Source of the DNA: Candidatus Omnitrophota bacterium
GTDB lineage: Bacteria > Omnitrophota > Gorgyraeia > Duberdicusellales > 4484-171
Assembly: GCA_014729775.1 (NCBI GenBank)
Contig: WJJJ01000007.1
Coordinates: 94,302-158,301 of the forward strand
Length of the DNA: 64,000 nucleotides
Direction of reading: 5' to 3'
In this document: positions 20,370 to 37,244 of the stretch, piece after piece
Layout of the letters: each line of letters starts with the position of its first letter
How positions within the stretch are numbered: position 1 is the first letter of the stretch
Program-made: the position numbers and the translations under genes
Notes under the pieces: model-generated
What the model was told of the DNA's origin: nothing
Seen by the model: the letters and a program-made list of their open reading frames with translations, nothing else
The model's database searches: none

Positions 20370-20443
20370 GGCGGTGTAGCTCAGGCTGGCAGAGCAAACG
20401 GCTCATACCCGTTTTGTCGGTGGTTCAAGTCCACTCGCCGCCA
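20370..20443 (+). tRNA. tRNA with CAT anticodon (elongator tRNA-Met or tRNA-Ile2-lysidine type; not initiator-like)
   Basis: Manual fold: acceptor GGCGGTG/CGCCGCC with a G1-C72 pair, D-arm GCTC/GAGC, anticodon loop CTCATAC, T-arm GGTGG-TTCAAGT-CCACT. 74 nt, no encoded CCA. Confidence 0.85.
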
Positions 20444-20498
20444 CGTTTTTTTCCGGAGGAAGGGAGCGGTGAAAGCGAAGAGGAAAAGGAGGGAATAA

Positions 20499-20768
20499 AT
20501 GGAAGTCCGTGTGGAAAAACCCGATCAAAACACGCTTGCGCAGTTGAACGTATCAGCCTGGCCTATTTGGGAGAAGCAAGAGAGTACCTTTGAGTGGAGT
20601 TACCCCCAGCAGGAAATCTGTTATCTGCTTGAAGGACGCGCCGAAGTCACCTTGCCTTCAGGAGAAAAGGTTGCCTTTGGGGAGGGCGACCTGGTCACAT
20701 TCCCCCAGGGGCTTGACTGTACCTGGCATATCATTCAAAAGGTCCGCAAGCATTATCAGCTTGGCTGA
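20499..20768 (+). CDS. Small cupin-domain protein (DUF861/cupin_3-like)
   Basis: 89 aa with a good GGAGGG RBS. Sequence resembles single-domain cupins. Confidence 0.5.
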   Translation: MEVRVEKPDQNTLAQLNVSAWPIWEKQESTFEWSYPQQEICYLLEGRAEVTLPSGEKVAFGEGDLVTFPQGLDCTWHIIQKVRKHYQLG

Positions 20769-20957: not shown

Positions 20958-22478
20958 ATGGACATCGCTTCTCTTCTTTCTTCTCATGCCGCCGATCGGC
21001 CGGGAAAAACCGCGGTACAGACCCGCGGCCGGTCGATGTCGTTCCGTGAACTGGCGCGCCGGGCGTTTCAGGTAAGCGAGTTTCTCGAACGCCGGGGCGT
21101 GGTGAAGGGAACGCACGTCGGGATATTTCTCCCCAACAGCGTTGAGTCGGTGTGGATTCAGCTGGGAATCTTATGCCGGGGCGCAGTCTTGGTACCGCTG
21201 GACTATATGTTATCGCAGGAGGAAGTTATCGCCTTTCTTCATCACAGCGGCGCCGCGCTTCTTTTCTTCCAGCCGAAAAAGGGGATCGATGCCGCCGAGG
21301 TGCGGGCGCGTTGTCCGCACCTGCAGAGTGTGGTGCGCTGCGGCGATTCTCCGGGAGAGGAGCGAGGCGGTGATCTTGACGAGCTTGTTTCGTACAGCGG
21401 TCGGGAGCCGAAAGGTTCCGTGTCTCCGGATGATCCGGCGGCGCTGTTTTATACTTCGGGTTCGACGGGGCGGCCCAAAGGGGTGGTACTCAGTTTTGGA
21501 CATCTGGATAATCCCGTTGAAACGATAGGAAAATATTTGCAGGTGGAGGAGACAGACGTGTTTTTGTGCGGAGGAGTTCCGTTTTCTCATGTGGGCGGTC
21601 TCGATTATCTTCTTCTGACAGCCTCGTTCGGCACGACGCTGGTGCTCATGGAGCGTTTTCATCCTTTGGAATTCCTGAGAAACATCGCGGAGTTCGGCGT
21701 GACGATATTTTGCATTGTTCCGGCGATGTATGTCGCGATCCTTGCCCTGAAAGAGTACGAACGGTTTGATCTGTCTTCTCTGCGCTACGCCGTAGTATTC
21801 GGCGCTCCTTCTTCTCCGGCGTTATTGTGCAGGTTTCACCGGATGTGTCCCAATGCCGGAGTGCTCAACGGATGGGGCATGACCGAAACCGCCGCACCGA
21901 ACACGTTTTCTCCCCGGGACGAGGAAAAATTAAGCACGATCGGACGGTTTGAGCTCGGCACTGAAGCGCGGTTGAGCGATGATGCCGGACGGGAAATCTC
22001 CGGCCCGGGAGAAGGCGAGTTATGGGTGCGGGGGCCGGCGGTGATGAAGGAATATTTTAAGGACCTGGAACTTACCCGGCAGACAATCACGCCAGAGGGA
22101 TGGCTGAAAACAGGAGATATCGCCCGTCGCGACCGGGAAGGCATCTATACTATTGTAGGAAGAAAAAAGGATATGTTAAAGGTTGCCGGAGAGATCGTGT
22201 TTTGCGCCGAGGTCGAAGAGGCGCTCCAGATGCATCCGGAGGTGCGGGAAGCCGCCGTGATCGGCGTTCCCGACCGTTTCCGCGGAGAGGTGCCCAAGGC
22301 TTTTGTGGTTTTACGGGACGAGGCGGCGCATGGTGGCGAACATCTGCGGGAGTTCCTTCGCGCGCGCCTGGCCCATTTCAAAATTCCGCATTTTTTCCAG
22401 GTGTGCGGTTCATTGCCGAAAAACAGAACAGGGAAGATCGATAAACGGCTGTTAAGGAAAACAGAAGAATCCGTATAA
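20958..22478 (+). CDS. AMP-dependent synthetase/ligase (acyl-CoA or aryl-CoA ligase, ANL superfamily)
   Basis: AMP-binding motif YTSGSTGRPKGV, A8/A10-like motifs (GWLKTGD..., PKNRTGKIDKRLL). 506 aa. Confidence 0.85.
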   Translation: MDIASLLSSHAADRPGKTAVQTRGRSMSFRELARRAFQVSEFLERRGVVKGTHVGIFLPNSVESVWIQLGILCRGAVLVPLDYMLSQEEVIAFLHHSGAALLFFQPKKGIDAAEVRARCPHLQSVVRCGDSPGEERGGDLDELVSYSGREPKGSVSPDDPAALFYTSGSTGRPKGVVLSFGHLDNPVETIGKYLQVEETDVFLCGGVPFSHVGGLDYLLLTASFGTTLVLMERFHPLEFLRNIAEFGVTIFCIVPAMYVAILALKEYERFDLSSLRYAVVFGAPSSPALLCRFHRMCPNAGVLNGWGMTETAAPNTFSPRDEEKLSTIGRFELGTEARLSDDAGREISGPGEGELWVRGPAVMKEYFKDLELTRQTITPEGWLKTGDIARRDREGIYTIVGRKKDMLKVAGEIVFCAEVEEALQMHPEVREAAVIGVPDRFRGEVPKAFVVLRDEAAHGGEHLREFLRARLAHFKIPHFFQVCGSLPKNRTGKIDKRLLRKTEESV

Positions 22479-22499
22479 ACCGTTAAGGAGGAATACGTT

Positions 22500-23249
22500 A
22501 TGATGCAGCGGGACGTGCATATGAAACCCGGAGATTTACTCGAGTCGCTCCAGTTTCAGCCTGGTGATTTCGGTCCGGTCGCACTGGTGAGCGGACAGCC
22601 CCACCGGGCAAAAATGTGCCTTAAGAAGCTTGAGAACCCGGTGAAAAATTTTACCTTTTTGGGGTATACGTTTTGGACCGGGACCTACCAGGGGCAGAAG
22701 GTTACCGTAGGCAATGGAGGATTTTATGCGCCTGATTCGGCTTTTGTCACCGAACTGCTCTGTTTCGGCGGAGTCGACATATTAATCCGGCTGGGATCTT
22801 GCGGAGCGCTGCAGGAACAAATTGAGATCGGGGATTTTATCGTCGCGGATAAGATTCTTCGCGGAGACGGCGCGACCCGGTACTATGTGGATGATTCCTT
22901 TGTGCCCCGCGTGGACAGTGCACTTGCGAATTCCCTGTGTGCGCTTTTCCGCGGAGTGGGCACGGTGCACCAGGGCGGGATCTGGACCACGGATGCATTA
23001 TTCAAGGAAACCAAAGAGATCGTCAATCCTTATATTGAACGCGGCGCGATCGCCGTTGATATGGTGACTTCTCCGTTCGTGACCGTGGCCAATCAATACG
23101 GGAAGAAATGCGCGGCCGTGCTGTCGGTTTCGGACAATCTCATTACGGGCCGGCTCGGATTCACGGATTTTCGGTTTTATGAAGCGGAATTGAAGATGAC
23201 CGACGCGGTTTTTCAGCTCGTTGCGCAGAGCGAGGGAGCAAAAAAATGA
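22500..23249 (+). CDS. Nucleoside phosphorylase, PNP/UDP (phosphorylase-1) family; possible MTA/5'-deoxyadenosine phosphorylase
   Basis: 249 aa. Fold motifs (VTVGNGGFYAP, GSCGAL, DMVTSPF). AAGGAGG RBS. Confidence 0.65.
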   Translation: MMQRDVHMKPGDLLESLQFQPGDFGPVALVSGQPHRAKMCLKKLENPVKNFTFLGYTFWTGTYQGQKVTVGNGGFYAPDSAFVTELLCFGGVDILIRLGSCGALQEQIEIGDFIVADKILRGDGATRYYVDDSFVPRVDSALANSLCALFRGVGTVHQGGIWTTDALFKETKEIVNPYIERGAIAVDMVTSPFVTVANQYGKKCAAVLSVSDNLITGRLGFTDFRFYEAELKMTDAVFQLVAQSEGAKK

Positions 23250-23536
23250 ACATTGAATGGAGGCCCGATGCCGAGCAGGTGTTTCAGCAGGTCGTTTCTC
23301 ATTTGCCGCAGTTCCACCGGAGTATCGCGGAGCGGCTGGTAAGAGAAAAAGCCCCGGAACTCGCGCGGTCCCGCCAGGCGGAAAGAGTCACCCGGGAAGA
23401 CGTGATAGGCGCCTTCATGCAGGAAGTTCCCCCGGCTTTCAAAGAGATGCTTGAGCGGTTGCTTCACAAGCTGCGCATTCCCTGGGACGGTTCCCAAAAT
23501 GATCGAGCACAGACAGCAGATCAGGATACGGACTAG
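23246..23536 (+). CDS. PCP_red-like small protein (protochlorophyllide reductase C-terminal-domain-like)
   Basis: 96 aa, ATGA-coupled to the upstream gene. N-terminal W..DAEQVFQQV..LPQFHRSIAERLVREKA resembles standalone PCP_red domain proteins. Confidence 0.4.
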   Translation: MNIEWRPDAEQVFQQVVSHLPQFHRSIAERLVREKAPELARSRQAERVTREDVIGAFMQEVPPAFKEMLERLLHKLRIPWDGSQNDRAQTADQDTD

Positions 23537-23939
23537 CGCGGATCTCGTTTTTGATGAATGCGTCCGCTGGTGGAGAAGTCCGTGGTGGCCGCCGGTTCCG
23601 GTGGAGTTCCGGGAACTACAGCGTCACGCGGGAGAATGGGTATACGAACAGAAAATCAACATGCCCTGCGGTCCCCGATGGCGGGTGCGGCAGGTGCGCG
23701 CCGACCGCGGAGCGAAACGCGTCGAACGGAGATTTACCCGGGGAGTTTTTTCCGGCGGCGGGGAGCTGATAGATCTTCTGCCGGAGGAGGCGTCAACGAA
23801 AATTTCGTACGAGTTTTCTTTCCCTTCCCGGAATCCGGCGGTGGTATGCGCCTGGTACGCGGTGGCGAAATATTTTCACCGGCAAAGCGTGCAGAGAGTA
23901 TTCCATGCGATGAAAACCTATCTGGAGGCGGATGAATGA
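23499..23939 (+). CDS. SRPBCC-fold protein (polyketide cyclase/dehydrase-like), Trp/Arg-rich
   Basis: About 146 aa from the internal Met. Start is uncertain and it overlaps the previous gene out of frame. Fold assignment is by similarity pattern only. Confidence 0.4.
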   Translation: MIEHRQQIRIRTSADLVFDECVRWWRSPWWPPVPVEFRELQRHAGEWVYEQKINMPCGPRWRVRQVRADRGAKRVERRFTRGVFSGGGELIDLLPEEASTKISYEFSFPSRNPAVVCAWYAVAKYFHRQSVQRVFHAMKTYLEADE

Positions 23940-24946
23940 AAATTGCGGTGATCGGATGCGGCGCCATCGGAGGAACTCTTCTCGCCTATTTGTCCCGCGC
24001 GGGCGCAGACGTTAGGGGCGTAATGAAATCCTCTCAGCTCGCCGATGTGAGCGGAAAGGGCTTGCGGCTGGAAGGTGCGCGCGGCGCGGAGCAGGTCAAG
24101 GTGCGCGGGGTTGAACGTCTTGGGGAACCGGTGGATCTGGCGGTGTGCGCGACAAAAATCCCCGATCTGGAAGAAGCGTTGGAACGCGCCGCGCCGTTTC
24201 TGCGGGACGCGGTTACGGTGACGACTCAGAACGGGGTGGCGGCCGACGCGATTGCGCAGAGGTTCGTTCCCCGGGAGCGGATACTCAGCGGCGTGGTGAT
24301 GTTCGGGGCAACGTACCTGCCGCCTGCGAAGATCGTGCATCATTTTGAAGGTCCTCTTTTGCTGGGGAATCCCTGGGAAAAGAAGGTTCCCCGCGCCGAA
24401 GAGATCAAAAGGGAGTTGTCCCGGGCGGTGGAAATTTCTTTCTGTCCCGACATCCTTGGTGCAAAATATTTGAAATTATTCGTGAACCTGAATAACTGTG
24501 TTCCGGCAGTGCTGGGCTGTTCTTTGCAGGAGGCGTTTTCCTCTCCCGAAATTGCGGAAATCGCCGTTCGGTTAAACCGCGAAGCCTACCGGGTAGTGGC
24601 CGCGCGGGGGATCGTCCTGCAGAGTTTACCCACCTATCCCAAGGAACGGTTGGAAAAATTGGTGTCACTGCCGGTAAAAGAGGCCGCGGGAATTTTTTCT
24701 CGTATTATGCAGTCTTTGAGCGAAACTCCGGTGTACGGTTCGGTTTTGCAGAGTATCCGCCGTGGACGCAGGTCGGAGATCGATTATTTAAACGGAGAAA
24801 TAGTGCGGCTGGCCGCACAGGGTTCTCAGCCGGCGTTCTATAACCGGACTATCGTGGACATGGTGCATTCCGTGGAACAATCGGGACGCTTTTTCTCCCG
24901 GGAGGAATTAGTGAAAAAAATGGAGCAAGAAAAGGAGGCGGCATGA
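23936..24946 (+). CDS. Ketopantoate reductase-like (ApbA/PanE family) NAD(P)-dependent oxidoreductase
   Basis: N-terminal Rossmann motif MKIAVIGCGAIGG. 336 aa. ATGA overlap with the upstream gene. Confidence 0.75.
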   Translation: MKIAVIGCGAIGGTLLAYLSRAGADVRGVMKSSQLADVSGKGLRLEGARGAEQVKVRGVERLGEPVDLAVCATKIPDLEEALERAAPFLRDAVTVTTQNGVAADAIAQRFVPRERILSGVVMFGATYLPPAKIVHHFEGPLLLGNPWEKKVPRAEEIKRELSRAVEISFCPDILGAKYLKLFVNLNNCVPAVLGCSLQEAFSSPEIAEIAVRLNREAYRVVAARGIVLQSLPTYPKERLEKLVSLPVKEAAGIFSRIMQSLSETPVYGSVLQSIRRGRRSEIDYLNGEIVRLAAQGSQPAFYNRTIVDMVHSVEQSGRFFSREELVKKMEQEKEAA

Positions 24947-25542
24947 GCGCAGATCCGCAGCCCAAGATCGTATTTCCCAAAATAAAACTCACGGTCATTA
25001 AGAAAGAAGGGCATTGTTATCATCATTATGAGGTGGGTGACGAATTCATCCTGGACGACTTCACCCATCCGCCGAAGCATTTTTGCGCCGGTATTGTGAA
25101 ATCCGCGTTTCCCTGTTTTTATGCGCTTACCTTCGGGTCTGAATTCAAATTCATGGACAATACCAAATCGATTACGACTACTTGTCCCGATAACGGGAAG
25201 CTCACCTTTAAAATCGAACTGCTCGACGAACAGGGCGGGGTAATCGAAAAACCTAAGGAGAAGCCGCCGAAACCGAATCCGAAGCAGCTGGAGATTGAGG
25301 TGGAGGAAGTCCGCGGGCATTGTTTTTTCGGATACAAAAAGGGGGATACGTTTCGTACTACCGGGTTGAAAACCCCCGTGGACTTCTGCGGCGCGGCGTA
25401 CAGCGTGCTGTTCCCGGTATTGTTCGCGCTGAATTTCGGCGCCGAATTCCCGTTCGAAAAAAACCCGGTGTGCAAAACAGGAATCACCTGTCCCGATGGC
25501 GGCAACATCAAATTTAAAATTACAAGAGTGGAGGACCGATGA
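24943..25542 (+). CDS. Tandem-duplicated TIGR04076-like protein (two Cys/His-rich repeats)
   Basis: Two homologous halves of about 90 aa, each with EGHC/RGHC ... GDEF/GDTF ... FCxxxxxxxFP ... ALxFGxEF ... CPD(N/G)G ... FKI motifs. 4-nt overlaps with both neighbouring genes. Confidence 0.55.
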   Translation: MSADPQPKIVFPKIKLTVIKKEGHCYHHYEVGDEFILDDFTHPPKHFCAGIVKSAFPCFYALTFGSEFKFMDNTKSITTTCPDNGKLTFKIELLDEQGGVIEKPKEKPPKPNPKQLEIEVEEVRGHCFFGYKKGDTFRTTGLKTPVDFCGAAYSVLFPVLFALNFGAEFPFEKNPVCKTGITCPDGGNIKFKITRVEDR

Positions 25543-26792
25543 GAAGAGTCGTGATTACCGGACTCGGCGTGATCTGCGCCGCCGGAGAGGATAAAGACCG
25601 GTTTTATCAGAATTTGATCGACGGGGTGCCCTGCATTGAACGGGTTGAGAATTTTGACGTGAGTTTGTTTAATTCCAAAATTGCCTCTCAGGCGGCGGAT
25701 TTCGATCCGCGCAAATTTGATATTCCGGATTTTCAGCGCATGGACCGTTACGTCCAGATGTCACTGGCGTCGGCGAAACAGGCCGTGGACGATTCCGGGA
25801 TCGATTTTTCCCGGACCGACCGGCGCCGGTGCGGCGTGGTGCTCGCCAACGCGATCTGCGGCACGCGTTTCATGGAGGAAGAATTTTTGCTGGTGACCGA
25901 CTGGGGAAAAAATCCCATTGATCCGCGCAAAGGGCGTCCCTACCTGTATGACGCGGCCATGTTTAATACTCCCAGCGCGGAAATCGCGGCGCGTTACCGC
26001 ACACAGGGGATCAACTGTACGATTTCGACCGGGTGTACCGCCGGCACGGATTCGATCGGGTTTGCCTACGAGTTGATTCGGGAGGGCCGGCAGGAGTGCG
26101 TGCTCGCCGGCGCGGGAGAAGCGCCGATCACGCCGATCACCTTCGGCGCGTTCGATGTGGTAAACGTATTATCCAAAAGAAACGACGATCCCCATCGCGC
26201 GTCAAGACCGTTTGATCACCAGCGGGACGGATTCGTCATTTCCGAGGGCGCGGGAATTCTGATGCTGGAGGAATTAAATCATGCCCGGGAACGCGGCGCG
26301 CAGATCTATGCCGAAATCACCGGATACGGAACCAGTTGTAACGCCTATCATATGACGGATCTGCCGCCGGACGGGGAACCTATGGCCAGGTGCATGCGTG
26401 ATGCGCTTGCCGAAGCCGGCATTCCTCCGGATAAAATCGGATATGTGAACGCCCACGGCTCTTCCACCCGGCAGAACGACGCTTTTGAAACCGACGCGTA
26501 TAAAAAGGTATTTCAGGAGTATGCGTATCACGTACCCATTAGTTCCATAAAGTCCATGATCGGACATCCTTTGGCGGCGGCGAACGCGGTGGAAAGCGTA
26601 CTGTGCTGCATGGTGTTCCGGCACGGGTATCTTCCGCCGACGATTAATCATGAAGAGCCGGATCCGAAATGTGATCTCGATTACATACCGAACACGAAAC
26701 GAGAGGGTGCGCCGGAGTACATCCTGAAAACGAGCAGCGGGTTTTCCGGCATTCATTCTTCGATCGTTTTCAAAAGATGGAGCGCGCGATGA
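25539..26792 (+). CDS. Beta-ketoacyl synthase, type II PKS KS-alpha-like (FabF family), catalytically complete
   Basis: Active-site Cys in ISTGCTAGTDS. His residues in VNAHGSSTRQND and KSMIGHPLAAAN. 417 aa. Confidence 0.9.
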   Translation: MRRVVITGLGVICAAGEDKDRFYQNLIDGVPCIERVENFDVSLFNSKIASQAADFDPRKFDIPDFQRMDRYVQMSLASAKQAVDDSGIDFSRTDRRRCGVVLANAICGTRFMEEEFLLVTDWGKNPIDPRKGRPYLYDAAMFNTPSAEIAARYRTQGINCTISTGCTAGTDSIGFAYELIREGRQECVLAGAGEAPITPITFGAFDVVNVLSKRNDDPHRASRPFDHQRDGFVISEGAGILMLEELNHARERGAQIYAEITGYGTSCNAYHMTDLPPDGEPMARCMRDALAEAGIPPDKIGYVNAHGSSTRQNDAFETDAYKKVFQEYAYHVPISSIKSMIGHPLAAANAVESVLCCMVFRHGYLPPTINHEEPDPKCDLDYIPNTKREGAPEYILKTSSGFSGIHSSIVFKRWSAR

Positions 26793-28024
26793 AGGAACGA
26801 GTAGCCATTACGGGAATGGGAATAGTATCGCCCTGCGGTCTGAAAAAGGAAACGTTCTGGGCGAATTTGAAGCGGGCCGGATCGTACGTGGAAACCGTCA
26901 CACGATTCGACACGTCACTGTATCCGAGCCGGATCGCCGGACAGGTGCATGATCTTGATCCCTACACCCACCTTTCCGGCCGGTTGATCAAAAAAATCGA
27001 TGTGTTTTCTCATATGGCGCTGGTCGCCAGCGAACAGGCGCTTCAGGATGCCGGAGTGGATCCTGCCTCGGTGGACAAGAACCGGGTGGGGGTTTTCATG
27101 GGAAATGCTCTCGGTGGATGGCTGTTCGCGGAAACCGAGCTCAGAGACATGTATATCGAGGGTCGGGAAGGAATTTCGCCGTATATGGCCAGCGCGTGGT
27201 TTCCCGCGGCTCCGCAGGGACAGATTACGATTTATTATGGATTCAAGGGGTACAGCAAAACGATAGTCGCCGATCGAGCTTCTTCCGGACTCGCGTTATG
27301 GTACGGCGCAAGGACGATCAGGCAGAAAAAGAACGATTACGTATTGGCCGGAGGGATGGAAGCGCCTATTACCCCGTATGCCTTGCTGTGTGCCAATACC
27401 ATGGGCGGGTTATCGAAACAAAACCTCACGCCTGCCTCGGCGTATAAACCGTATGATTTATACCGCGACGGATTCGCCCTCGCAGAGGGCGCGGGCACCC
27501 TGATGCTGGAAAGCGAGACACAGGCGCGCCGGCGCGCGCGGCAGATTTACGGGTATCTTCAGGGGATCGGCTTTGCCTCGGACGGATACCATTACGCCCG
27601 GAGCGCTCCGGATTCGAGCGCGCTTGAATACGCGATCACCCAGTGCCTTGAAGATGCCGGATGGAAGACCGGCGAGGTCGATTACGTGTGTTTGGACGCG
27701 GAAGCGAGTCAGGTCGGCGACTGGTTGGAGTCCCGGGCGTTGAGAGAGGTGTTCGGCGCACATTGCGACCGGATGGCCATGAGCGCACCGAAATCGATGT
27801 TCGGTAATCTGTTGGGCGCGCAGACCGCGGTTGATCTGATTCTCACGTTGCTCTCGATGGAGCACGAGACGGTCCTGCCGACGATCAACTATCAAATGCA
27901 TGATCCTTACTGCGGGCTTGATTACACGCCGAACGTTCCCCGCCGCAGATCCATGCAAAAAGCGCTGCTGCTGTCCCGGGGCCGGGGCGGAATCCATGTG
28001 GTGGTGGCGGTCGAGAAAGCCTGA
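26777..28024 (+). CDS. KS-beta / chain-length-factor-like ketosynthase paralog lacking the Cys-His-His triad
   Basis: Thiolase fold, but the Cys position reads IVADRASSG and both His motifs are replaced (LDAEASQVGD, SMFGNLLGAQ). Overlaps KS-alpha by 16 nt. Confidence 0.8.
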   Translation: MERAMKERVAITGMGIVSPCGLKKETFWANLKRAGSYVETVTRFDTSLYPSRIAGQVHDLDPYTHLSGRLIKKIDVFSHMALVASEQALQDAGVDPASVDKNRVGVFMGNALGGWLFAETELRDMYIEGREGISPYMASAWFPAAPQGQITIYYGFKGYSKTIVADRASSGLALWYGARTIRQKKNDYVLAGGMEAPITPYALLCANTMGGLSKQNLTPASAYKPYDLYRDGFALAEGAGTLMLESETQARRRARQIYGYLQGIGFASDGYHYARSAPDSSALEYAITQCLEDAGWKTGEVDYVCLDAEASQVGDWLESRALREVFGAHCDRMAMSAPKSMFGNLLGAQTAVDLILTLLSMEHETVLPTINYQMHDPYCGLDYTPNVPRRRSMQKALLLSRGRGGIHVVVAVEKA

Positions 28025-28041
28025 GAAACAAAGGAGGGAGA

Positions 28042-28275
28042 ATGGAACTTTCCGAAGAAGTCCTTCAGACGATTTGTGAAACCTTGGAAGTAAAAAAGGA
28101 AGAGTGTCCGCCGGAACAGAAATTATACGATTCGATCGGGGTGGATTCCACGGAGATGGTCGAGCTGGTAGTCGCGCTCAATAAACGGTTCGGCATCAAA
28201 ATCGAAACGAACGAAATTACTAAGTTTTCGACGCCCTCTCAGATTTGTGAAATCGTCGCGAACAAGAAGGCATGA
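28042..28275 (+). CDS. Acyl carrier protein
   Basis: 77 aa. Phosphopantetheine-attachment context YDSIGVDSTEMVELVV. Confidence 0.8.
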   Translation: MELSEEVLQTICETLEVKKEECPPEQKLYDSIGVDSTEMVELVVALNKRFGIKIETNEITKFSTPSQICEIVANKKA

Positions 28276-28279
28276 TCCG

Positions 28280-29086
28280 ATGCGAATGGTGGATTTAAGC
28301 CTTCCTATCGACGATACCGCTTTTGAAGTGCACCCGTTGCGTATCGAGCGTACCGGACACAAGGAGGGGATCGAAAAGCTTAATAAAGTCATGATGTCAC
28401 GGATGCCGGGAGGAGCCGAACGCTTCAAGGCCGGTGAGCGCATCATCCGGCCTTCGGACGTGCCGGGTCAAGAGTTTCTTTCGCTGGAAATGGTCTACTC
28501 ATCCGTGCACAGCGGGACGCATTTGGATTATTCTTATCATTACGGAAGCCGGTCCGAGGGCCGGGCGTCGAAGCCGGCTTCGGAGATTCCCCTGGAATGG
28601 TGCGCCGGGCCGGGTGTGAAGCTGTCTTTGCGGGATGCGCAGCCGGGCGGGGCGATCACCGCAGACGACCTTCGGGCGGAACTGGACCGGATCGGGTATG
28701 GACTTAAGCCTTATGATATTGTGCTCATTTCCACCGGCTGCGACCGCTTGTTCGGCGGATCAGAATATTTCTCAGAATATCCGGGGATTGATCCCGGCGC
28801 GATCGATTTTCTTTTGGATTCCGGGATAAAAATTTTCGGGGTTGATACCATGGGAATTGACCGGCCGTATAAGTATATGATGAAGGAGTTCCTTGAGGAG
28901 AAAAACACGCAGGCGCTTTGGCCGGCGCATTTTCACGGCCGCAAAAGGGAATTCGTCCACATTGAACGTCTGGCGAATTTGGCGGCGCTTCCCGATTATG
29001 GATTTACCGTGTTCTGTTTTCCGGTGAAAATCCGTAATACCGGAGGAGCCTGGGCCAGGGTCGTGGCGCGGGTGCAAGAGCAGTGA
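28280..29086 (+). CDS. Cyclase-family protein (kynurenine formamidase-like fold, PF04199-type)
   Basis: About 268 aa from the ATG at 28280, just after the ACP stop. Metal-binding H-x-GTHxD-like motif (SSVHSGTHLD). Confidence 0.65.
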   Translation: MRMVDLSLPIDDTAFEVHPLRIERTGHKEGIEKLNKVMMSRMPGGAERFKAGERIIRPSDVPGQEFLSLEMVYSSVHSGTHLDYSYHYGSRSEGRASKPASEIPLEWCAGPGVKLSLRDAQPGGAITADDLRAELDRIGYGLKPYDIVLISTGCDRLFGGSEYFSEYPGIDPGAIDFLLDSGIKIFGVDTMGIDRPYKYMMKEFLEEKNTQALWPAHFHGRKREFVHIERLANLAALPDYGFTVFCFPVKIRNTGGAWARVVARVQEQ

Positions 29087-29118
29087 AAACAGGACGATGA
29101 AACGAAAGGAGGTTGTTC

Positions 29119-29547
29119 ATGGCGCATACGGTGAACAGAATCGTCATTGATGCCGATTACGAGAAAGTGTTCGAGATGAGCAACGATATCGGCCGCTGGA
29201 AAGAATTTTTTAATGAATATACCGATTCCAAAGTGCTCAAAAAGGAAGGGAAGAAAATTACCTTTGAATTAACCCATCAGAAAGGAACCCGCTGGACATC
29301 ATACCGGATATTGGCGAAAGAGGAGAGGTTCGCCTACGCGTCCCGGATGGAACCGATGGCTCCTTTTCAGTACATGAAAATCATATGGCTCTACCGGGAA
29401 ACCGAAGGGGGAACGGAGATGACATGGATTCAGGATTTCTCCATGGCGCCGGACGCGAAGGTGGATGATTCCCGGGCCGAACAGATGATTAACGAGCATT
29501 CCAAAGAAAATCTGAAGCGGTTTAAAGAGATCATCGAAAATTCCTAA
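29119..29547 (+). CDS. SRPBCC-fold protein (aromatase/cyclase-like, polyketide_cyc2-type)
   Basis: About 142 aa. AAGGAGG RBS 6 nt before the ATG at 29119. Confidence 0.6.
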   Translation: MAHTVNRIVIDADYEKVFEMSNDIGRWKEFFNEYTDSKVLKKEGKKITFELTHQKGTRWTSYRILAKEERFAYASRMEPMAPFQYMKIIWLYRETEGGTEMTWIQDFSMAPDAKVDDSRAEQMINEHSKENLKRFKEIIENS

Positions 29548-29552
29548 AGATC

Positions 29553-30686
29553 ATGCCGCGGAAACACTTTTGGGTATTCTGTCTGCTTTTTTTTACTCTT
29601 TCGTTCGGGGTCGCCGCGACGGCTGCGCTGGTTCCGTCGATCGCGGAGTATTTCGGACGGCCGAAAGAGGAGGCGATCAGGCTTACCTGGTTGTATATGC
29701 TTCCTTACGGCATTTTCGCGTTGTTCTGGGCTCCCCTCACCCGGGTAGTGAGAATAAAGACGCTGCTGACCTGCGCAACCGCGGGGTTTTCCGTCGCGGC
29801 GTTCCTGTTCAGTTTTGCGCCGACGTTGCCTCACGCGTTTCTCTACCGGTTTCTCATGGGGAGTTTCGGGTGCAGTTTTGTGCCGTTGTCGCTGATCGCG
29901 GTCGGCAAAACGGTCGATTCCGGCAAAAAAGGGAAATACATCGGAACGTTTTTTTCTCTTTCCTGGGTGTCGACGCTGATCAGCGTGTTCCTCAGCGGGT
30001 TCATTCCCTGGAGAATGATTTATCTTGTGCCTGCGGTGCTGGCGCTGTGCGCCTGTCTGTTGGTCCGCCTGTGGCTGGAAGATCTGGATTTCCGCCAGAA
30101 AGGGGTCGGGGTCAGTTATCTGAGGACTTTGCGCGATCCGGCGGCGTTTTCTTTCTTTCTGGTGATCATGGCCGGAAGTTTCTTGTATCACGGGGTGCAG
30201 CAGCGCCTGGGGATGTTTTTTGCGGACGCGTTTTCATTACGCCAGGTGGTGATCAGCAGTATTTATACGCTGGCTACGCTGAGCGCGATCGTGTTTGAAT
30301 TTACCGGAGGGCACCTGTGCAGTCGGTTCGGGAATATCCCGGTCACCCGCGTCGGGTTTTTCGTCATGAGCGGATTTATTCTGCTTTTGTTGTGTTCGCG
30401 GCAAATGCCGGTGCTGATCTGGAGCATTCCTCTTTGGGGCGCGGGATGGGCGTTGACCCACGTGGGGATCTCGTCGCGGTTGACCGATTTTCCCGATCAG
30501 GTGATGCGTGACGCGTCGAGTTTGAACAGTTCCCTGCGGTTTACCTTCGGGGGGCTGGGCGCGTTCGCCGGCGGGCTGTTATTGAACATAGTGGGATTCG
30601 GTTTTCTTTTTCTGATAATGGGAACGGGGATTGTTCTGTTAGGCGCAGTGCTGCCCAAAATGTTAGGGAGGAGAGGTGCAACATGA
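29553..30686 (+). CDS. MFS transporter (likely exporter)
   Basis: 377 aa, about 10-12 hydrophobic helices, MFS-like loop motifs. Confidence 0.8.
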   Translation: MPRKHFWVFCLLFFTLSFGVAATAALVPSIAEYFGRPKEEAIRLTWLYMLPYGIFALFWAPLTRVVRIKTLLTCATAGFSVAAFLFSFAPTLPHAFLYRFLMGSFGCSFVPLSLIAVGKTVDSGKKGKYIGTFFSLSWVSTLISVFLSGFIPWRMIYLVPAVLALCACLLVRLWLEDLDFRQKGVGVSYLRTLRDPAAFSFFLVIMAGSFLYHGVQQRLGMFFADAFSLRQVVISSIYTLATLSAIVFEFTGGHLCSRFGNIPVTRVGFFVMSGFILLLLCSRQMPVLIWSIPLWGAGWALTHVGISSRLTDFPDQVMRDASSLNSSLRFTFGGLGAFAGGLLLNIVGFGFLFLIMGTGIVLLGAVLPKMLGRRGAT

Positions 30687-31450
30687 AATCATTGGAAGGA
30701 AAAACGGCGATCGTGACCGGCGCCAGCGGCGGAATCGGACAGCAAATCGTGCGCAGGCTCGCGGCGCAGAAGATGAAAATCGTACTGGCCGCGCGGCGGA
30801 TGGAAGTACTTGAGGAGCTCAAATCCGGTCTCCCCGTGCCGGAAGACGCGGTATGCGTCAAATGCGACGTGACCGATCAGCGGAATCTGGAGGAACTTGT
30901 CGCCGCCGCGGTACGTTCCTTCGGGAAGATCGATGCCCTGATAAACGGCGCCGGCGTATCCAGTCAGCATCCGTTCTGGGAACAGCCGCTCGAAGATATC
31001 GGAAAGATTATGTATACCAACTATTACAGTTATGTCATGCTTGCCCGTCTGGTGGTGAATCATATGAAAGACGCCGGCAGCGGACATATCGTAAACATTA
31101 CCAGCGGGTCGGTAATGGTGGACCCGCCGCCGCGTAATTTTATCGTGTATACCTCGCTGAAGGTCGCGCTGCGGGCGTTCGCCAAGGGGCTGTTCTGGGA
31201 AATGAGAGATTTCGGTATCAAGGTGACTTCTATTTTCCCCGGAGTGACCAAAACGCCTTTAACCGGAAAATTGAAAGAGGTCTCGAAAACACAGGAGAGA
31301 CTTATTGATCCGGCGGTCGTTGCCGATACCGTGGTGTTCGCGCTCCGGCAGCCGGCCAATGCCTGTCCTTTGGAGCTGGCGGTGATCAACCAGCAGACTC
31401 CCTGGACCAAGCCGGTCATTCCGTTTTCGCAGGACCATCCGGAAGAATAA
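30683..31450 (+). CDS. Short-chain dehydrogenase/reductase (SDR) family oxidoreductase
   Basis: TGASGGIGQ Rossmann motif, NAG, and YxxxK (YTSLK). 255 aa. ATGA overlap with the MFS gene. Confidence 0.85.
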   Translation: MKSLEGKTAIVTGASGGIGQQIVRRLAAQKMKIVLAARRMEVLEELKSGLPVPEDAVCVKCDVTDQRNLEELVAAAVRSFGKIDALINGAGVSSQHPFWEQPLEDIGKIMYTNYYSYVMLARLVVNHMKDAGSGHIVNITSGSVMVDPPPRNFIVYTSLKVALRAFAKGLFWEMRDFGIKVTSIFPGVTKTPLTGKLKEVSKTQERLIDPAVVADTVVFALRQPANACPLELAVINQQTPWTKPVIPFSQDHPEE

Positions 31451-31521
31451 AGAAGGAAGAGGCTGAGAGGGGAAGGAACAAAAGTGCAGAGATATCAAAG
31501 TATCGCGTTTGATTTTTTGCG

Positions 31522-31550
31522 TGCCGGCGGCCCGGCAGGAAGTTTTCGTT
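31522..31550 (+). terminator. Terminator-like hairpin (TGCCGG-cggc-CCGGCA) plus T-rich tract after the SDR gene
   Basis: 6-bp GC stem with 4-nt loop, followed within 5 nt by TTTTCGTTT. Suggests a transcription-unit break inside the cluster. Confidence 0.3.
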
Positions 31551-31587
31551 TGATGTGCTCACAGAAGAAAAAATAAAAAAGGAGGAG

Positions 31588-33051
31588 ATGATGAAGGTTT
31601 TATTCGTTTCACCGAAACTCGGTGCATGGGCTACTCACGGAGAACACCGGGCGCCGAACCAGCTCTACGCGCAATGGGCCGCGTATATCCGGCAGCAGGG
31701 CTATGAAGATCTGGAAGTGCTGGATTGTAAGGCCTGGGATATTCCCATGGACGCAATGGTGGAAGAGGTCAAAAAAAAGAAACCGGATGCGGTGGTGTTG
31801 GGCGACATGCTGCATTCCTACGGAGGATTCGCGATCTTGTGGTATTTCAACGAAACCGCTTCGCGGATCAAGCATGCGCTGCCGCAGACCAGGATTATTG
31901 TCGGAGGGCTTTGGTATTCATCGATGCCGACGGAAACACTAAAGCAGAATCCCGCGATTGATTACGTGGTGATGGGAGAAGAGGAAGCGTTCTGCGAATT
32001 GATCGACGCGCTGGCAAAGGAGAAGTCAACCGAAGCGATTCCCGGGGTGACTTCGAGGATTGACGGGAAAGTCGTGCTGGGGCCGCACCGTCCTCTGCGG
32101 ATGGATCTGGATTCTCTTCCTTTGCCGGCCTATGATTTGTTTCCGATGGACAAATACGTCGGCCATACGCACTGGAAGCCGTTCGTGGAAATGGTAACCT
32201 CACGGGGCTGTCCCTCGGCCTGTACGTTTTGCTACGAGTGGGACCAGTATGATCCCCGGCACCCGGAAGATTTCCTCAAATGGCGGGCCAAGTCCCCGGA
32301 ACGGGTGATCGAGGAGCTGGAGTTACTGCACACGAAGTTCGGCACTAAGGTGGTGGTCATCCAGGACGATAACTTTAACGTGAATCCCGACCGCGTGAAG
32401 CGGTTTTGCGAATTGAAGAAAGAGCGGAATATTCCGGTCAAATGGGTGTCACTGGGCCGTGCAGTGGATTGGATCAACTGCGAGAAAATTCTTCCGCTCA
32501 TGAAAGAAACCGGGATGTTTATCGGAGTGTTCGGGATCGAAGTGACGACTCCCGAAGAATTAAAGCAGATCGCCAAAGGGATCACGGTTGAGCAGATCCA
32601 GAAAACCGTGGAAATTCTTCGCGCCAATGATATCGCGATCGTTGCCGATATCATGATGGGGTTTGACGACGATACCGAACAGCGGATTAAACAACGTTAC
32701 GAATTTACCGACAAAGTCGATCCCGACATTCTTTGGATCGGATACGTCACGCCCGCGCCGAATTCGCCGATTTGGCGGCAGCGGGTGAAACGGGGGGAGA
32801 TCGATCCGTCCAAGATCGATTTCCTGAAGTGGGATTTTCTCCATCCGGTAATGGATACCCCGCATCTGACGGTGGATGATTACGGCCGGTTGGGCGCATG
32901 GTGCATGCGGGAATTTTATTCGAAACCCGGGCGCATCCAGCGGATCATGACCAGTGATTTTGACGAACTCGCGAAACTGTGTTTCCAGGACGTGATGCGC
33001 GGAGTTTCGAAATGGGAAGAAGGAGCAGTGAAGGGAGAGAAACACATCTGA
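31588..33051 (+). CDS. B12-binding domain radical SAM enzyme (class B rSAM)
   Basis: N-terminal B12-binding-like region. CxxxCxxC radical-SAM cluster motif in GCPSACTFCYEWDQ. GGAGG RBS. Start is the first or second ATG of MMKV. Confidence 0.85.
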   Translation: MMKVLFVSPKLGAWATHGEHRAPNQLYAQWAAYIRQQGYEDLEVLDCKAWDIPMDAMVEEVKKKKPDAVVLGDMLHSYGGFAILWYFNETASRIKHALPQTRIIVGGLWYSSMPTETLKQNPAIDYVVMGEEEAFCELIDALAKEKSTEAIPGVTSRIDGKVVLGPHRPLRMDLDSLPLPAYDLFPMDKYVGHTHWKPFVEMVTSRGCPSACTFCYEWDQYDPRHPEDFLKWRAKSPERVIEELELLHTKFGTKVVVIQDDNFNVNPDRVKRFCELKKERNIPVKWVSLGRAVDWINCEKILPLMKETGMFIGVFGIEVTTPEELKQIAKGITVEQIQKTVEILRANDIAIVADIMMGFDDDTEQRIKQRYEFTDKVDPDILWIGYVTPAPNSPIWRQRVKRGEIDPSKIDFLKWDFLHPVMDTPHLTVDDYGRLGAWCMREFYSKPGRIQRIMTSDFDELAKLCFQDVMRGVSKWEEGAVKGEKHI

Positions 33052-33062
33052 CGAATCGTGAA

Positions 33063-33101
33063 GATCCTTGATTCCTGATCCAGGATCCCGAATCAAGGAT
33101 C
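33063..33101. repeat. Near-perfect 39-nt palindrome (GATCCTTGATTCCTGATCC-A-GGATCCCGAATCAAGGATC) between the rSAM and amidohydrolase genes
   Basis: Read directly from the sequence. Outer 12-bp arms are perfect inverted repeats. A related 13-mer CTCGATCCTTGAT recurs at 41541-41553. Confidence 0.6.
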
Positions 33102-33116
33102 GAGCATCTATTTATT

Positions 33117-34034
33117 ATGATTTGCGACGCGCACATTCATTACATTCCGCAAGAGCTTTCCGAGCATACTTCGTTTTACCGCGGAGTATGGACGCGCAGG
33201 GATGCGTTGTACCGTTATCTGGAGGAGGAAGGGATCGAACGGGCCCTGCTGGTATATCCTTCCACCGACGCTCATCTCAAGATCGGGATTCGGGACACCG
33301 TGCGGATGTATAACTCCGCGGCCGAACGGGTGATGCGGGATAATCCCAAAGTGCTCGCGGCGGCCTTGGTAAATCCGCACGAACGGGATTCTCTGGAGGT
33401 GCAGATTGATTCCCTTGCGCGGCGGGGATTCCGGGCGGTCAGCCTGAGTTCAAGTTACGAGGGCAAGTTTCTGGTGCGGGAACTGTTTCCGCTTTTTGAC
33501 GCCGCCGCCCGGCATCAAATGGCGGTGTACATTCATCCTCAGACCATTAACCCGATCGGTTTTGAACGGGTCAAAGATCCGCTGCTGATGCCGGTTCTTG
33601 AATACAGCTTTGACCTTTCGATGTGCATGGGATTAATGATGATGGAAGGGGTGTTTTCCCGCTTTCCCCTGCCGTTTGTGTTTTCCTCGCTGGGCGGAGT
33701 GATTCCCCTGCTCGCCGGCCGTTTCGATCGGGTGTATGCGATGCTGCGCGCGCGGGGATACGTGAAGGATTTAGGCCGGCCGCCCACGGAAATCCTGGGC
33801 ACGGTGTATGTTGATATTTCCGGAGCGACGCCCGCGACGCTGGCGTTGGCCCGAGATCTTTACGGGGATGACCGTCTTCTCTGGGGTTCCGATTATCCGG
33901 TACACGCCGATGCGGACCGGCGCGGTGCGTTACTGGCGGATGTTCCCGCGGCCGCCAGGCGTAAAATTCAGCGGGAGAATTTTTTTGCGGTGTTCGGTAT
34001 GACGATTCCGCCGGGAAAAAAGGAGCGGGAATGA
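33117..34034 (+). CDS. Amidohydrolase family protein (amidohydrolase_2/TIM-barrel metal-dependent hydrolase)
   Basis: N-terminal MICDAHIHY metal-binding motif. 305 aa. No SD is visible upstream. Confidence 0.75.
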   Translation: MICDAHIHYIPQELSEHTSFYRGVWTRRDALYRYLEEEGIERALLVYPSTDAHLKIGIRDTVRMYNSAAERVMRDNPKVLAAALVNPHERDSLEVQIDSLARRGFRAVSLSSSYEGKFLVRELFPLFDAAARHQMAVYIHPQTINPIGFERVKDPLLMPVLEYSFDLSMCMGLMMMEGVFSRFPLPFVFSSLGGVIPLLAGRFDRVYAMLRARGYVKDLGRPPTEILGTVYVDISGATPATLALARDLYGDDRLLWGSDYPVHADADRRGALLADVPAAARRKIQRENFFAVFGMTIPPGKKERE

Positions 34035-34837
34035 TCGTATACGTGAACGGCTCTTTTCGCGATCAAAGTGCCTGCGGAGAAGTGTATGAACCCGGCTTTC
34101 TTTTCGGATGGGGATTGTTTGAAACCATGCGGGTCTACGGCGGCAAGCTTCCTTTTCTCCATCTGCATCTGGAGCGGTTGAAACGCGGCATGGGCCTGGT
34201 GCGTCTGGAACCGGTTTCATGTGAATGGGAACATACGCTGCAGGAAACACTGCGGCGCAACGAGATAGACGAAGGATACGTGCGTATTTCTGTGTATAAA
34301 CGGAAGGAAGGAACCGGGGTAAGCATATATGCGGCGCCGTTTCGATATTACGGTCCGCAGATGTATGAACGCGGGGTTGATCTTTTCTTTTCTCCCTGTA
34401 CGAGGCATCCCGGCGAGATTGCGTCGCGGGTCAAGTCGATGAGTTATCTGCAGAACCGTCTTGCCTGGCTCCAGGCCCAGGAACAGGGATGCGCTGAGGC
34501 GCTCATGGCCGGTCCCTGCAGAACACTGCTCGGCGGCGCCCGGAGTAATGTGTTTATCGTCCGTCACGGGGAAACAGTTACCCCGGCGGCCCGGGACGGG
34601 GCGTTTGAAGGGGTGACCAGGAAAGTCGTGCTGGATATGCTGAGCGATTTAAAGATACCGTTTCGGGAAGGGAAGGTATCTGCCGGCGATGTGTATGCCG
34701 CCGACGAGGTATTTCTTACCAGCGCGCTCATGGAGATCATGCCGGTCGCCCGCTGCGGACGGCTTGAGGTAGGAACGCGGGAGAAAACCGTGATCCCGGC
34801 ATTGCGCGCCCGGTATCGGGAGATTGTGTATGAGTAA
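34031..34837 (+). CDS. Class IV aminotransferase (branched-chain aminotransferase/ADC lyase family), PLP-dependent
   Basis: 268 aa with fold-type IV motifs (ETMRVYGGK, ...NVFIV..G...TP). ATGA overlap with the amidohydrolase. Confidence 0.75.
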   Translation: MIVYVNGSFRDQSACGEVYEPGFLFGWGLFETMRVYGGKLPFLHLHLERLKRGMGLVRLEPVSCEWEHTLQETLRRNEIDEGYVRISVYKRKEGTGVSIYAAPFRYYGPQMYERGVDLFFSPCTRHPGEIASRVKSMSYLQNRLAWLQAQEQGCAEALMAGPCRTLLGGARSNVFIVRHGETVTPAARDGAFEGVTRKVVLDMLSDLKIPFREGKVSAGDVYAADEVFLTSALMEIMPVARCGRLEVGTREKTVIPALRARYREIVYE

Positions 34838-35765
34838 TCCGTCCGGGAAGTTCCAAAGTCCGTTGCTGTTTCCGGTACGGCTCAACCGGGATTCTCTCAC
34901 GGTGCTGGACGAGACCGCCCTGCCGTTTGAGGAAAAATATCATGAGGTGAGGGACCTTGCCGCGGCCGAGAAACTCGTGCGCGAGATGAAAACCCGGTCG
35001 TTAGGACAGGTGCTGTTGTTCTTCGGCTGCGCGGTGTTGTGGGAAAACCGGGTTTCACCCGAGGAGATCGCCCGGCGCATGCACCGGGCGCGGCCTACGT
35101 TCGATTTCGAGTATCTGGCCCGGCTCCTGCGTGCATGGCAGCGGCGGGGAGTTCCCTACCGGACCGCAACGGAGCGGTTCCTCGCCGGATTCGACGCTGC
35201 CCGAAAAGCGCGGGCCGACGAGCTTGCTTCCCTGCTTCCTTCGCCGGCGAATGTGCTGACAATCTGCAACGTGAACGGAGAACTTCTCTATTTGGCGCAG
35301 GCACTGAGCACGCGCAGTGTTCCCGTGCATGTGTATGTGGCAGAAACCAGGCCTTATTTGCAGGGTAGTCGTCTTACCTTTTGGGAGCTTCAGCGTGCCG
35401 GCGTGCCCTCGACACTGTTGTGCCAGTCGCAGGCGGCGGAGATAATGCAGCAGGACACGGTGAATGCCGTCGTGACCGGAGCCGATCGCGCGACTGTCCG
35501 GGGCGATATTATGAACAAGATCGGCACGTACGCGCTGGCCCGCTGCGCGCGGTATTTTAATATTCCGGTGTATGCGTTAACGCAGTATCCCCGGGACGTT
35601 GATATCGACCGGATCCCTCTGGAAGAGCGTCCGCCGGAAGAGGCGTTTCTCTTTTTACCGGATTCCTATCCCCGGGTAGATGCCGTGTATCCGGCGTTCG
35701 ATGTGACCAAAAAGGAATATCTCACCCGGTCTGTCGAATTGAAGGTGTCCAGTGAAATTAGCTGA
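34830..35765 (+). CDS. eIF-2B alpha/beta/delta-family isomerase, MtnA-like (S-methyl-5-thioribose-1-P / 5-deoxyribose-1-P isomerase-like)
   Basis: Conserved C-terminal motif VVTGADRATVRGDIMNKIGTYALA is equivalent to MtnA GADRIAANGDTANKIGTY. 8-nt overlap with the upstream gene. Confidence 0.75.
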   Translation: MSNPSGKFQSPLLFPVRLNRDSLTVLDETALPFEEKYHEVRDLAAAEKLVREMKTRSLGQVLLFFGCAVLWENRVSPEEIARRMHRARPTFDFEYLARLLRAWQRRGVPYRTATERFLAGFDAARKARADELASLLPSPANVLTICNVNGELLYLAQALSTRSVPVHVYVAETRPYLQGSRLTFWELQRAGVPSTLLCQSQAAEIMQQDTVNAVVTGADRATVRGDIMNKIGTYALARCARYFNIPVYALTQYPRDVDIDRIPLEERPPEEAFLFLPDSYPRVDAVYPAFDVTKKEYLTRSVELKVSSEIS

Positions 35766-37211: not shown

Positions 37212-37244
37212 AGAGCGGAGAAATCAGCCAAAGGAGTCGAGACC

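Follow-up and report, generated by a model that had tools for sequence, protein, structure and literature searches.

Which part does a small, cysteine-rich protein play when its gene is wedged between a reductase and the ketosynthase of a bacterial polyketide synthase? The type II polyketide synthase (PKS) is a textbook three-protein machine consisting of the ketosynthase (KS), the chain-length factor (CLF) and the acyl carrier protein (ACP), and strict anaerobes would have to tailor aromatic polyketides without oxygenases. The 64,000-nucleotide stretch of Candidatus Omnitrophota DNA analyzed here (the window) encodes such a protein, composed of two copies of the TIGR04076 domain. This family and its tandem form are already known; TIGR04076 itself is known but uncharacterised, in agreement with the statement in an earlier note on this DNA that no function had been assigned to it. 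The two papers in which a literature search found the family mentioned carry no functional data; no Pfam model, solved structure or published function was found for the family, nor any literature mention of the accessions of the fusion proteins described below.

A duplicated TIGR04076 protein coupled to its flanking genes

Searches with the NCBIfam model of TIGR04076, whose curated cutoff is 33 bits, matched the protein twice (102.2 bits for the whole sequence; searched separately, the N and C halves score 59.8 and 47.5 bits), thereby placing each half in the family to which the earlier note had assigned it. Alignment of the two halves recovers 35% identity over 93 columns (E 9e-17), which is far beyond chance for an internal repeat and bears out the tandem duplication. 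Structure prediction with AF2 (pLDDT 93.5, pTM 0.88 for the tandem; pLDDT 89 for a single domain) yields a model in which the two halves are packed together, and each half is predicted to adopt a strand-strand-helix-strand-strand arrangement, i.e. two hairpins flanking one helix.

The cysteine motifs listed in the earlier note are real: across 49 orthologues no variation is seen at the GxC, FC or CPD cysteine of either half. The cysteine of the FPC motif (C58), which had been included with these, is not conserved. The conserved set of the N-terminal domain comprises C25-Y-H27, D39-F-T-H42, C48 and C81-P-D83. This domain is a diverged copy that has gained two extra invariant histidines, and Y26, H27, Y29, D39, T41 and H42 are invariant residues that this half of the PKS-linked tandem alone possesses. 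In the C-terminal domain C127 and C149 are invariant and C183-P-D185 is near-invariant; it is the half nearest to the single-domain and ACP-fused PKS-linked relatives.

Both ATGA overlaps described earlier, with the reductase and with KS-alpha, are present: the ApbA frame ends at 24946 and the tandem gene starts at 24943, while the latter ends at 25542, past the KS start at 25539. Shine-Dalgarno-like GGAGG sites (24934-24938 and 25530-25534) lie 4 nt ahead of the two starts. The stoichiometric co-expression with the PKS core that the earlier note derived from the overlaps is putative. The features of the locus are collected in Table 1.

Table 1. The type II PKS cluster and the tandem TIGR04076 gene, in positions of the window
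Feature	Position	Strand	Remarks
AMP-dependent acyl-CoA/ACP ligase	20958..22478	+	left end of syntenic block
PNP_UDP_1 nucleoside phosphorylase/nucleosidase (DeoD/MTAN-like)	22500..23249	+	
96-aa protein with PCP_red / BchZ C-terminal-like domain	23246..23536	+	kept in most loci
ORF of ~146-162 aa, start uncertain	23451..23939	+	weakly conserved
ApbA/PanE-type NAD(P)H-dependent reductase (2-dehydropantoate 2-reductase family)	23936..24946	+	
GGAGG and ATGA stop/start overlap, ApbA/tandem gene	24934..24946	+	read from sequence
Tandem TIGR04076 gene	24943..25542	+	199 aa; identical to MBD3245766.1 (Candidatus Omnitrophica MAG)
N-terminal TIGR04076 domain	24979..25227	+	residues 13-95
Pro/Lys-rich inter-domain linker	25228..25281	+	residues 96-113; length varies among orthologues
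C-terminal TIGR04076 domain	25282..25536	+	residues 114-198
GGAGG and ATGA stop/start overlap, tandem gene/KS-alpha	25530..25542	+	read from sequence
KS-alpha, type II PKS	25539..26792	+	active-site Cys present (TGCTAG motif)
Chain-length factor (KS-beta, CLF)	26777..28024	+	Arg for catalytic Cys; catalytic His residues lost
Acyl carrier protein (PP-binding, DSTEMVEL motif)	28042..28275	+	
PF04199 'putative cyclase' (OxyN-type polyketide cyclase)	28247..29086	+	
SRPBCC polyketide cyclase/aromatase (TcmN-type; Polyketide_cyc2)	29113..29547	+	
MFS transporter	29553..30686	+	
Short-chain dehydrogenase / ketoreductase	30683..31450	+	
B12-binding radical SAM enzyme, BchE/HpnJ-like	31555..33051	+	below family cutoffs
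Amidohydro_2 (PF04909), possible decarboxylase/hydrolase	33117..34034	+	right end of syntenic block

The surrounding genes form a type II PKS cluster: a KS-alpha with its catalytic cysteine, whose best solved relatives are the actinorhodin KS (1TQY_A) and Photorhabdus AntD (6SMO_B), is combined with a CLF lacking that residue and a discrete ACP, and genes for a TcmN-type SRPBCC protein and an OxyN-type PF04199 protein adjoin this minimal PKS. The small ORF preceding ApbA has no family match; its positional equivalent in one further locus (L004) shows a weak Polyketide_cyc2 match. The gene for the PCP_red-like protein adjoins the radical SAM gene in those loci that have the latter upstream. Genes coding for Cupin_3, HTH and bactofilin-like proteins further upstream in the window are not conserved along with the cluster.

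Conservation across Omnitrophota

A large protein database contains 293 relatives of the tandem protein, nearly all of them Omnitrophota tandems of 190-215 aa; the tandem form is the standard one in this phylum and not unique to the window. When one genome was scanned for each GTDB species, a relative was found in 218 species, and 80 loci were taken for analysis of genomic context. Comparison of these loci with the cluster proteins of the window by tblastn reveals that the whole block is syntenic, in the order AMP-ligase, PNP, ApbA, tandem TIGR04076, KS, CLF, ACP, OxyN-type cyclase, TcmN-type cyclase, MFS, SDR, B12-radical SAM and amidohydrolase, and that this synteny is kept across deep divergence within Omnitrophota, down to 52% identity. 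KS and CLF genes lie directly 3' of the tandem gene in 68 of the 78 assessable species loci, which, along with the independent cases outside Omnitrophota given below, upholds the KS/CLF association anticipated by the earlier note. ApbA lies directly 5' in about 64 of the same 78. Junctions in the Omnitrophota loci are tight on both sides, with a median gap of 9 nt between ApbA and the tandem gene (14 junctions overlap) and of 14 nt between the tandem gene and KS (20 overlap). Thus, the tandem TIGR04076 protein is a constant and tightly coupled member of a phylum-conserved type II PKS cluster.

In 11-12 loci the tandem gene occurs without an adjacent ApbA or KS. These belong to one monophyletic Omnitrophota clade, which is sister to the clade of the window and nested among the PKS-linked proteins; given that the non-PKS loci form a single nested clade, the PKS linkage is ancestral, with a single loss. 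The sole recurrent neighbor in this clade is a B12-radical SAM gene, distantly related (23-29% identical) and present in 6 of the 12 loci. A B12-radical SAM gene is also found in every complete Omnitrophota cluster.

PKS clusters outside Omnitrophota and domain fusions

Homologous clusters in other organisms (KS 45-52%, CLF 37-39% and cyclases 41-44% identical to those of the window) also contain TIGR04076 genes, in several distinct arrangements. Two proteins (P0151 and P0145) combine a single TIGR04076 domain, 44-51% identical to the C half of the window protein, with a PP-binding (ACP) domain. The first is encoded by a Bacillota MAG (L174) in the order KS, CLF, TIGR04076::ACP, PF04199 cyclase, SRPBCC cyclase, PPTase, CMD, DUF362 and DUF169; this locus further codes for a second, stand-alone TIGR04076 protein beside KSIII, and no radical SAM gene was found within 8 kb. 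The only further relative of the ACP fusion that was found is a 175-aa TIGR04076::ACP protein of C. beijerinckii (WP_077837154.1; P0375), whose annotations name both the TIGR04076 family and an acyl carrier protein. Elsewhere (L175) an 88-aa single-domain gene is placed between CLF and ACP, 10 nt ahead of the latter, and two B12-radical SAM genes come after the ACP. In another two loci (L177 and L178) one or more TIGR04076 genes precede a KS 52% identical to that of the window, the order in L177 being TIGR04076, a small ORF and KS. The PKS-type TIGR04076 subfamily thus recurs, variously arranged, in homologous clusters of other phyla.

Within Omnitrophota the fusions involve the reductase. In L053 a single 536-aa ORF comprises ApbA followed by two TIGR04076 domains and overlaps the succeeding KS by 8 nt; L049, from the MAG of L053, was likewise flagged as such a fusion, and P0126 is an ApbA::TIGR04076 protein truncated at a contig end. 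The most elaborate version (L011) is a single frame of 1165 aa that joins an aldehyde:ferredoxin oxidoreductase (AOR/AFOR) to ApbA and two TIGR04076 domains. The corresponding AOR, ApbA and tandem genes are separate but abutting in L012, AOR is directly upstream of ApbA in L056, and it recurs in L016; in all, AOR is present in 4 of the 80 loci and stands beside ApbA in 3. The tightest physical links of the domain, as shown by fusion, are accordingly with the ApbA reductase and the ACP and not with KS-alpha itself.

The wider TIGR04076 family and its fold

Profile searches recover 3,416 TIGR04076 proteins, mostly single domains of ~88 aa, and a full HMMER scan yields 215 representative clusters. 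Architectures with 2-4 repeats also exist; a 797-aa protein with 8 apparent stretches (P0164) proved to be a false positive made of SpaA repeats. An alignment of 57 diverse domains of the family shows that the invariant positions are a G-x-C motif, a glycine, a cysteine just before the helix and a C-P-D motif, the cysteines of GxC, C and CPD being the only invariant ones. The window protein carries this signature twice (C25/C48/C81 and C127/C149/C183), each in a domain of ~85-90 aa. In a tree of the domains the PKS-type subfamily is separate from the generic singles and divides into two branches, one with the Omnitrophota N halves and the other with the C halves, the singles of L175 and L177 and the ACP fusions. 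Generic members include fusions to Flavin_Reduct and to DUF362 plus Fer4 (4Fe-4S dicluster). In one subfamily of singles, the gene immediately upstream, in the same orientation, codes for a NarI-like/Fer4/2xCCG protein (HdrD/DsrK-like) in 19-20 of 44 assessable loci, and an AMP-ligase gene is convergent downstream in 15 of 39.

Pfam returned no match for either half or for the canonical singles, even at E<=10, searches of the PDB by sequence and by profile detected no solved relative, no Fe-S motif or family (e.g. Fer4, Fer2, Rieske or CDGSH) was recognised in the tandem protein, and structure searches produced no significant match to ferredoxins or any solved fold. The top Foldseek match of both models is to XdhC/CoxI proteins (3ON5 and 2WE7; TMq 0.52-0.58 over ~90 columns, with non-significant E of 0.2-1.4). 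The Pfam model XdhC_CoxI (PF02625) does not match TIGR04076 domains. A consensus bait was used to draw XdhC N-domain sequences from the PDB, and comparison of those of 2WE7 and 3ON5 with the TIGR04076 profile by hhalign gave a probability of 0.1%. XdhC was therefore dropped as evidence of homology, leaving a weak resemblance in fold.

Proposed function and alternatives

In light of the above contextual connections, we propose that the product of the tandem gene, a pseudo-dimer of TIGR04076 domains, is an accessory subunit dedicated to an anaerobe-type type II PKS and translated along with it, probably binding metal and with a putative redox or adaptor role, an explanation that, taken whole, we hold to be somewhat probable. 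Strong comparative evidence argues that the protein would be a dedicated accessory subunit working physically close to the ACP and ApbA, since its membership in the cluster is constant and the domain recurs elsewhere with ACP and ApbA fusions. It probably binds metal: the three invariant cysteines of each domain (in GxC, before the helix and in C-P-D) could hold a metal or iron-sulfur centre, which the aspartate of CPD may join as a ligand. Along with the ApbA NAD(P)H reductase, the protein might dock on machinery centred on the ACP, and there function as a small redox or electron-relay adaptor in the oxygen-independent tailoring of the ACP-bound polyketide. Such a relay might serve ApbA, the B12-radical SAM enzyme or, in the loci that encode it, aldehyde:ferredoxin oxidoreductase.

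The redox and metal part of this proposal draws on the observation that nearly all partners across the TIGR04076 family are redox proteins. Two points weaken it, namely that no known Fe-S motif or fold is present and that ApbA-type enzymes transfer hydride directly and have no flavin, so that a simple relay from NADPH to one-electron carriers by way of ApbA would be chemically awkward. Also counting against the explanation are the non-PKS clade, 11-12 loci of which keep the tandem gene, and the Bacillota cluster devoid of a radical SAM gene within 8 kb. The B12-radical SAM enzyme, a candidate constant partner, accompanies the domain in all complete Omnitrophota clusters but in only 6 of the 12 non-PKS loci, with none in that range in the Bacillota locus.

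The domain could instead be purely structural, an adaptor or scaffold devoid of redox function, in which the three cysteines hold a structural zinc and the protein recruits the ACP to ApbA, KS-CLF and the tailoring enzymes, perhaps by protein-protein contacts alone like the docking and recognition domains of other assembly lines. Fusion to both ACP and ApbA, the small size, the architectures of 2-4 copies, the confidently modeled pseudo-dimer packing and the absence of a recognisable catalytic or Fe-S motif would all suit such a role. We nonetheless consider it unlikely, because partners in the family that are almost exclusively redox proteins (Flavin_Reduct, DUF362 plus Fer4, NarI/Fer4/CCG, AOR and ApbA) would not be explained by a generic docking domain. 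Another alternative, suggested by analogy to DsrC, a thiol substrate of the CCG-domain protein DsrK, is that the cysteines cycle through disulfide, persulfide or acyl-thioester forms and that the protein is itself a substrate or shuttle. The co-transcription of generic singles with a DsrMK/HdrD-like NarI-Fer4-CCG protein, the fusion to another carrier, namely ACP, and the AhpD-like CMD gene of the Bacillota cluster are consistent with this; however, the PKS-linked and CCG-associated domains fall in separate subfamilies, the Omnitrophota cluster has no CCG-domain gene, and the distribution of three cysteines over 60 residues resembles a typical metal site more than a redox dithiol, making a carrier role quite unlikely.

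The gene adjoins KS and ACP, and the invariant His, Tyr and Asp residues peculiar to the N half could conceivably be catalytic, in which case the protein would be a small enzyme acting on the polyketide or thioester as a cyclase, a chain-release or acyl-transfer enzyme or a helper in malonyl loading. Given that the canonical single domains linked to PKS in L175 and L174 lack those histidines, that a domain of ~85 residues has no pocket-forming fold match, and that the clusters already carry two cyclases, a KR and a hydrolase, this appears improbable. Least probable is a general housekeeping redox or cofactor handler, for instance a chaperone that resembles XdhC and serves the tungsten/molybdenum cofactor of AOR, whose position in the PKS cluster would reflect history and not function. 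A whole clade keeping the gene away from PKS genes, the XdhC/CoxI proteins as top, albeit non-significant, fold matches and the AOR fused or adjacent in L011, L012 and L056 are what such a function might predict. The synteny across deep divergence and its re-creation in other phyla with new gene orders and ACP fusions speak against it, as do the rarity of AOR and the negative profile comparisons with XdhC.

A bolder extension of the accessory-subunit proposal, which we regard as doubtful, would make TIGR04076 a new ACP-partner domain, probably with an unusual Cys3(Asp) metal or Fe-S centre, and the integral fourth component of ancestral anaerobe type II PKSs, tethered to the ACP in Bacillota (possibly in the clostrubin system) and to ApbA in Omnitrophota. 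In this capacity it would enable the oxygen-independent redox tailoring of aromatic polyketides bound to the ACP. Were this true, the conservation of the cluster throughout the phylum would imply that Omnitrophota make a core polyketide metabolite, e.g. a quinone-like electron carrier, and not an occasional antibiotic. A domain that is present in the PKS clusters of at least two phyla and fused to ACP or a reductase is in any case a candidate missing component of these systems and offers a first clue to the function of a family that numbers more than 3,400 proteins. The cluster itself is nearly universal in Omnitrophota, whose ultra-small and possibly host-dependent members are still poorly understood.

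Comparison with known systems

The weak likeness to the XdhC/CoxI N-domain consists of a strand, a Gly-rich loop, a second strand, a cysteine and a helix, but XdhC has one conserved cysteine as against three in TIGR04076. Comparison with ferredoxins is suggested by the Pyrococcus [4Fe-4S] ferredoxins that serve AOR and are ligated by three cysteines and an aspartate: the TIGR04076 domain is ~90 aa long with three invariant cysteines and an invariant aspartate, and its partners are typically ferredoxin users (AOR, radical SAM, Fer4/CCG proteins and flavin reductase). It differs from them in lacking CxxCxxC and in its predicted fold of two hairpins flanking one helix. With the DsrC/DsrK pair the generic single-domain members share the setting of a small cysteine-containing protein beside a NarI/Fer4/CCG membrane complex, but DsrC has no relationship to TIGR04076 in sequence or fold and the PKS-linked subfamily is without a CCG partner.

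Tandem and multi-repeat members of NCBIfam TIGR04076 (JGI 'uncharacterized repeat protein') are already in the databases. The Omnitrophota protein differs from the generic members in being part of a separate, PKS-linked subfamily, and its N half has diverged and added invariant His and Tyr residues. In the literature searched we did not find descriptions of a systematic link of TIGR04076 to anaerobe-type type II PKSs, of the ACP and reductase fusions, of a PKS-specific TIGR04076 subfamily or of the phylum-wide conservation of the cluster. Omnitrophica KS-CLFs appear in a published catalogue of type II PKS clusters as entries only, without further analysis, and 'ladderane' calls by antiSMASH have been reported in Omnitrophota. 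The work on dendrubin considers a KS-CLF-ACP-TcmN-OxyN architecture to be ancestral for non-actinomycete anaerobes, and the Omnitrophota cluster has the same core of KS-alpha, CLF, ACP, SRPBCC (TcmN-type) and PF04199 (OxyN-type) proteins as the type II PKSs of those organisms. TIGR04076, which is not listed in published descriptions of the anaerobe systems, is a constant member in Omnitrophota, where the cluster further adds ApbA, a B12-radical SAM enzyme, a PCP_red-like protein, an AMP-ligase and a PNP-family enzyme.

Conservation of the PKS-like cluster

The type II PKS-like cluster retains its synteny over its whole length in most sampled Omnitrophota species genomes (loci L006-L085), among them that of a cultivated bacterium, Ca. 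Velamenicoccus archaeovorus LiM (L032). 'Secondary' metabolite clusters are not usually conserved so broadly, and this suggests that the product is a core metabolite of the phylum. A tRNA-Met gene lies just 5' of the cluster's left border, as does a Cupin_3 gene that is not conserved. Within the cluster, the chain-length factor (CLF) has an arginine in place of the usual glutamine where the ketosynthase (KS) has its catalytic cysteine, and both catalytic histidines are gone.

Many MAGs with an Omnitrophota-type cluster are labeled in their records as Planctomycetia, Deltaproteobacteria, Syntrophaceae or Pseudomonadota (those of L017, L020, L024, L027, L048, L056, L078 and others), probably as a result of outdated or mistaken taxonomy, or of mis-binning. 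The MAG JAMWCN01 encodes the ApbA::TIGR04076x2-KS arrangement twice, on separate contigs (L049 and L053), and these copies could represent either a duplicated cluster or strain heterogeneity.

Gene-neighborhoods of the TIGR04076 domains

In one monophyletic Omnitrophota clade (L002, L018-L024, L029, L030, L039 and L042) the gene for the tandem TIGR04076 protein is found apart from the ApbA-type reductase and KS genes, with variable neighbors: a TPR protein, PilZ and a distant B12-radical SAM enzyme. Some clusters show a tungsten/molybdenum-type aldehyde:ferredoxin oxidoreductase (AOR) inserted immediately 5' of ApbA. One subfamily of generic single-domain versions (L094-L173) is encoded directly 3' of a gene for a NarI-like/4Fe-4S/2xCCG (DsrMK/HdrD-like) membrane protein of roughly 700 aa, in loci often bordered by AMP-ligase, enoyl-CoA hydratases and CoA-transferases. 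DUF362 occurs both as a gene alongside CMD and DUF169 in a Bacillota cluster (L174) encoding a TIGR04076 domain fused to an acyl carrier protein, and fused to three TIGR04076 repeats and a ferredoxin domain in the family protein P0189; this dual occurrence hints at a recurrent DUF362-TIGR04076 partnership.

Coordinates of the cluster, its surroundings and related loci
Feature	Location	Remark
tRNA-Met gene	window 20370-20444
Cupin_3 gene	window 20499-20768
PKS-like cluster	window 20958-34034
PNP/MTAN-like gene	window 22500-23249
96-aa protein	window 23246-23536
CLF	window 26777-28024
B12-radical SAM enzyme	window 31555-33051
Isomerase, aldolase, dehydrogenase	window 34824-38681
AOR insertion	L011 7196-10693	single open frame with ApbA and tandem TIGR04076 domains
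AOR insertion	L012 7048-8931
AOR insertion	L056 1892-3760
AOR insertion	L016 18372-20240
Membrane protein (example)	L166 3834-5948
DUF362 gene, alongside CMD and DUF169	L174 10256-12378

Radical SAM partners and salvage-like genes

The 96-aa protein, with a PCP_red/BchZ C-terminal-like (also DUF2621-like) domain, co-occurs with a BchE/HpnJ-like B12-radical SAM enzyme; in many loci their genes adjoin, the pair lying just 5' of ApbA. The cluster also contains a PNP/MTAN-like gene, and further 3' are genes for an isomerase of the IF-2B (MtnA-like) type, a class II aldolase (+SCP2) and an aldehyde dehydrogenase. Together these genes resemble a set for 5'-deoxyadenosine/MTA salvage (the 'DHAP shunt'), a role that would fit disposal of radical-SAM by-products.
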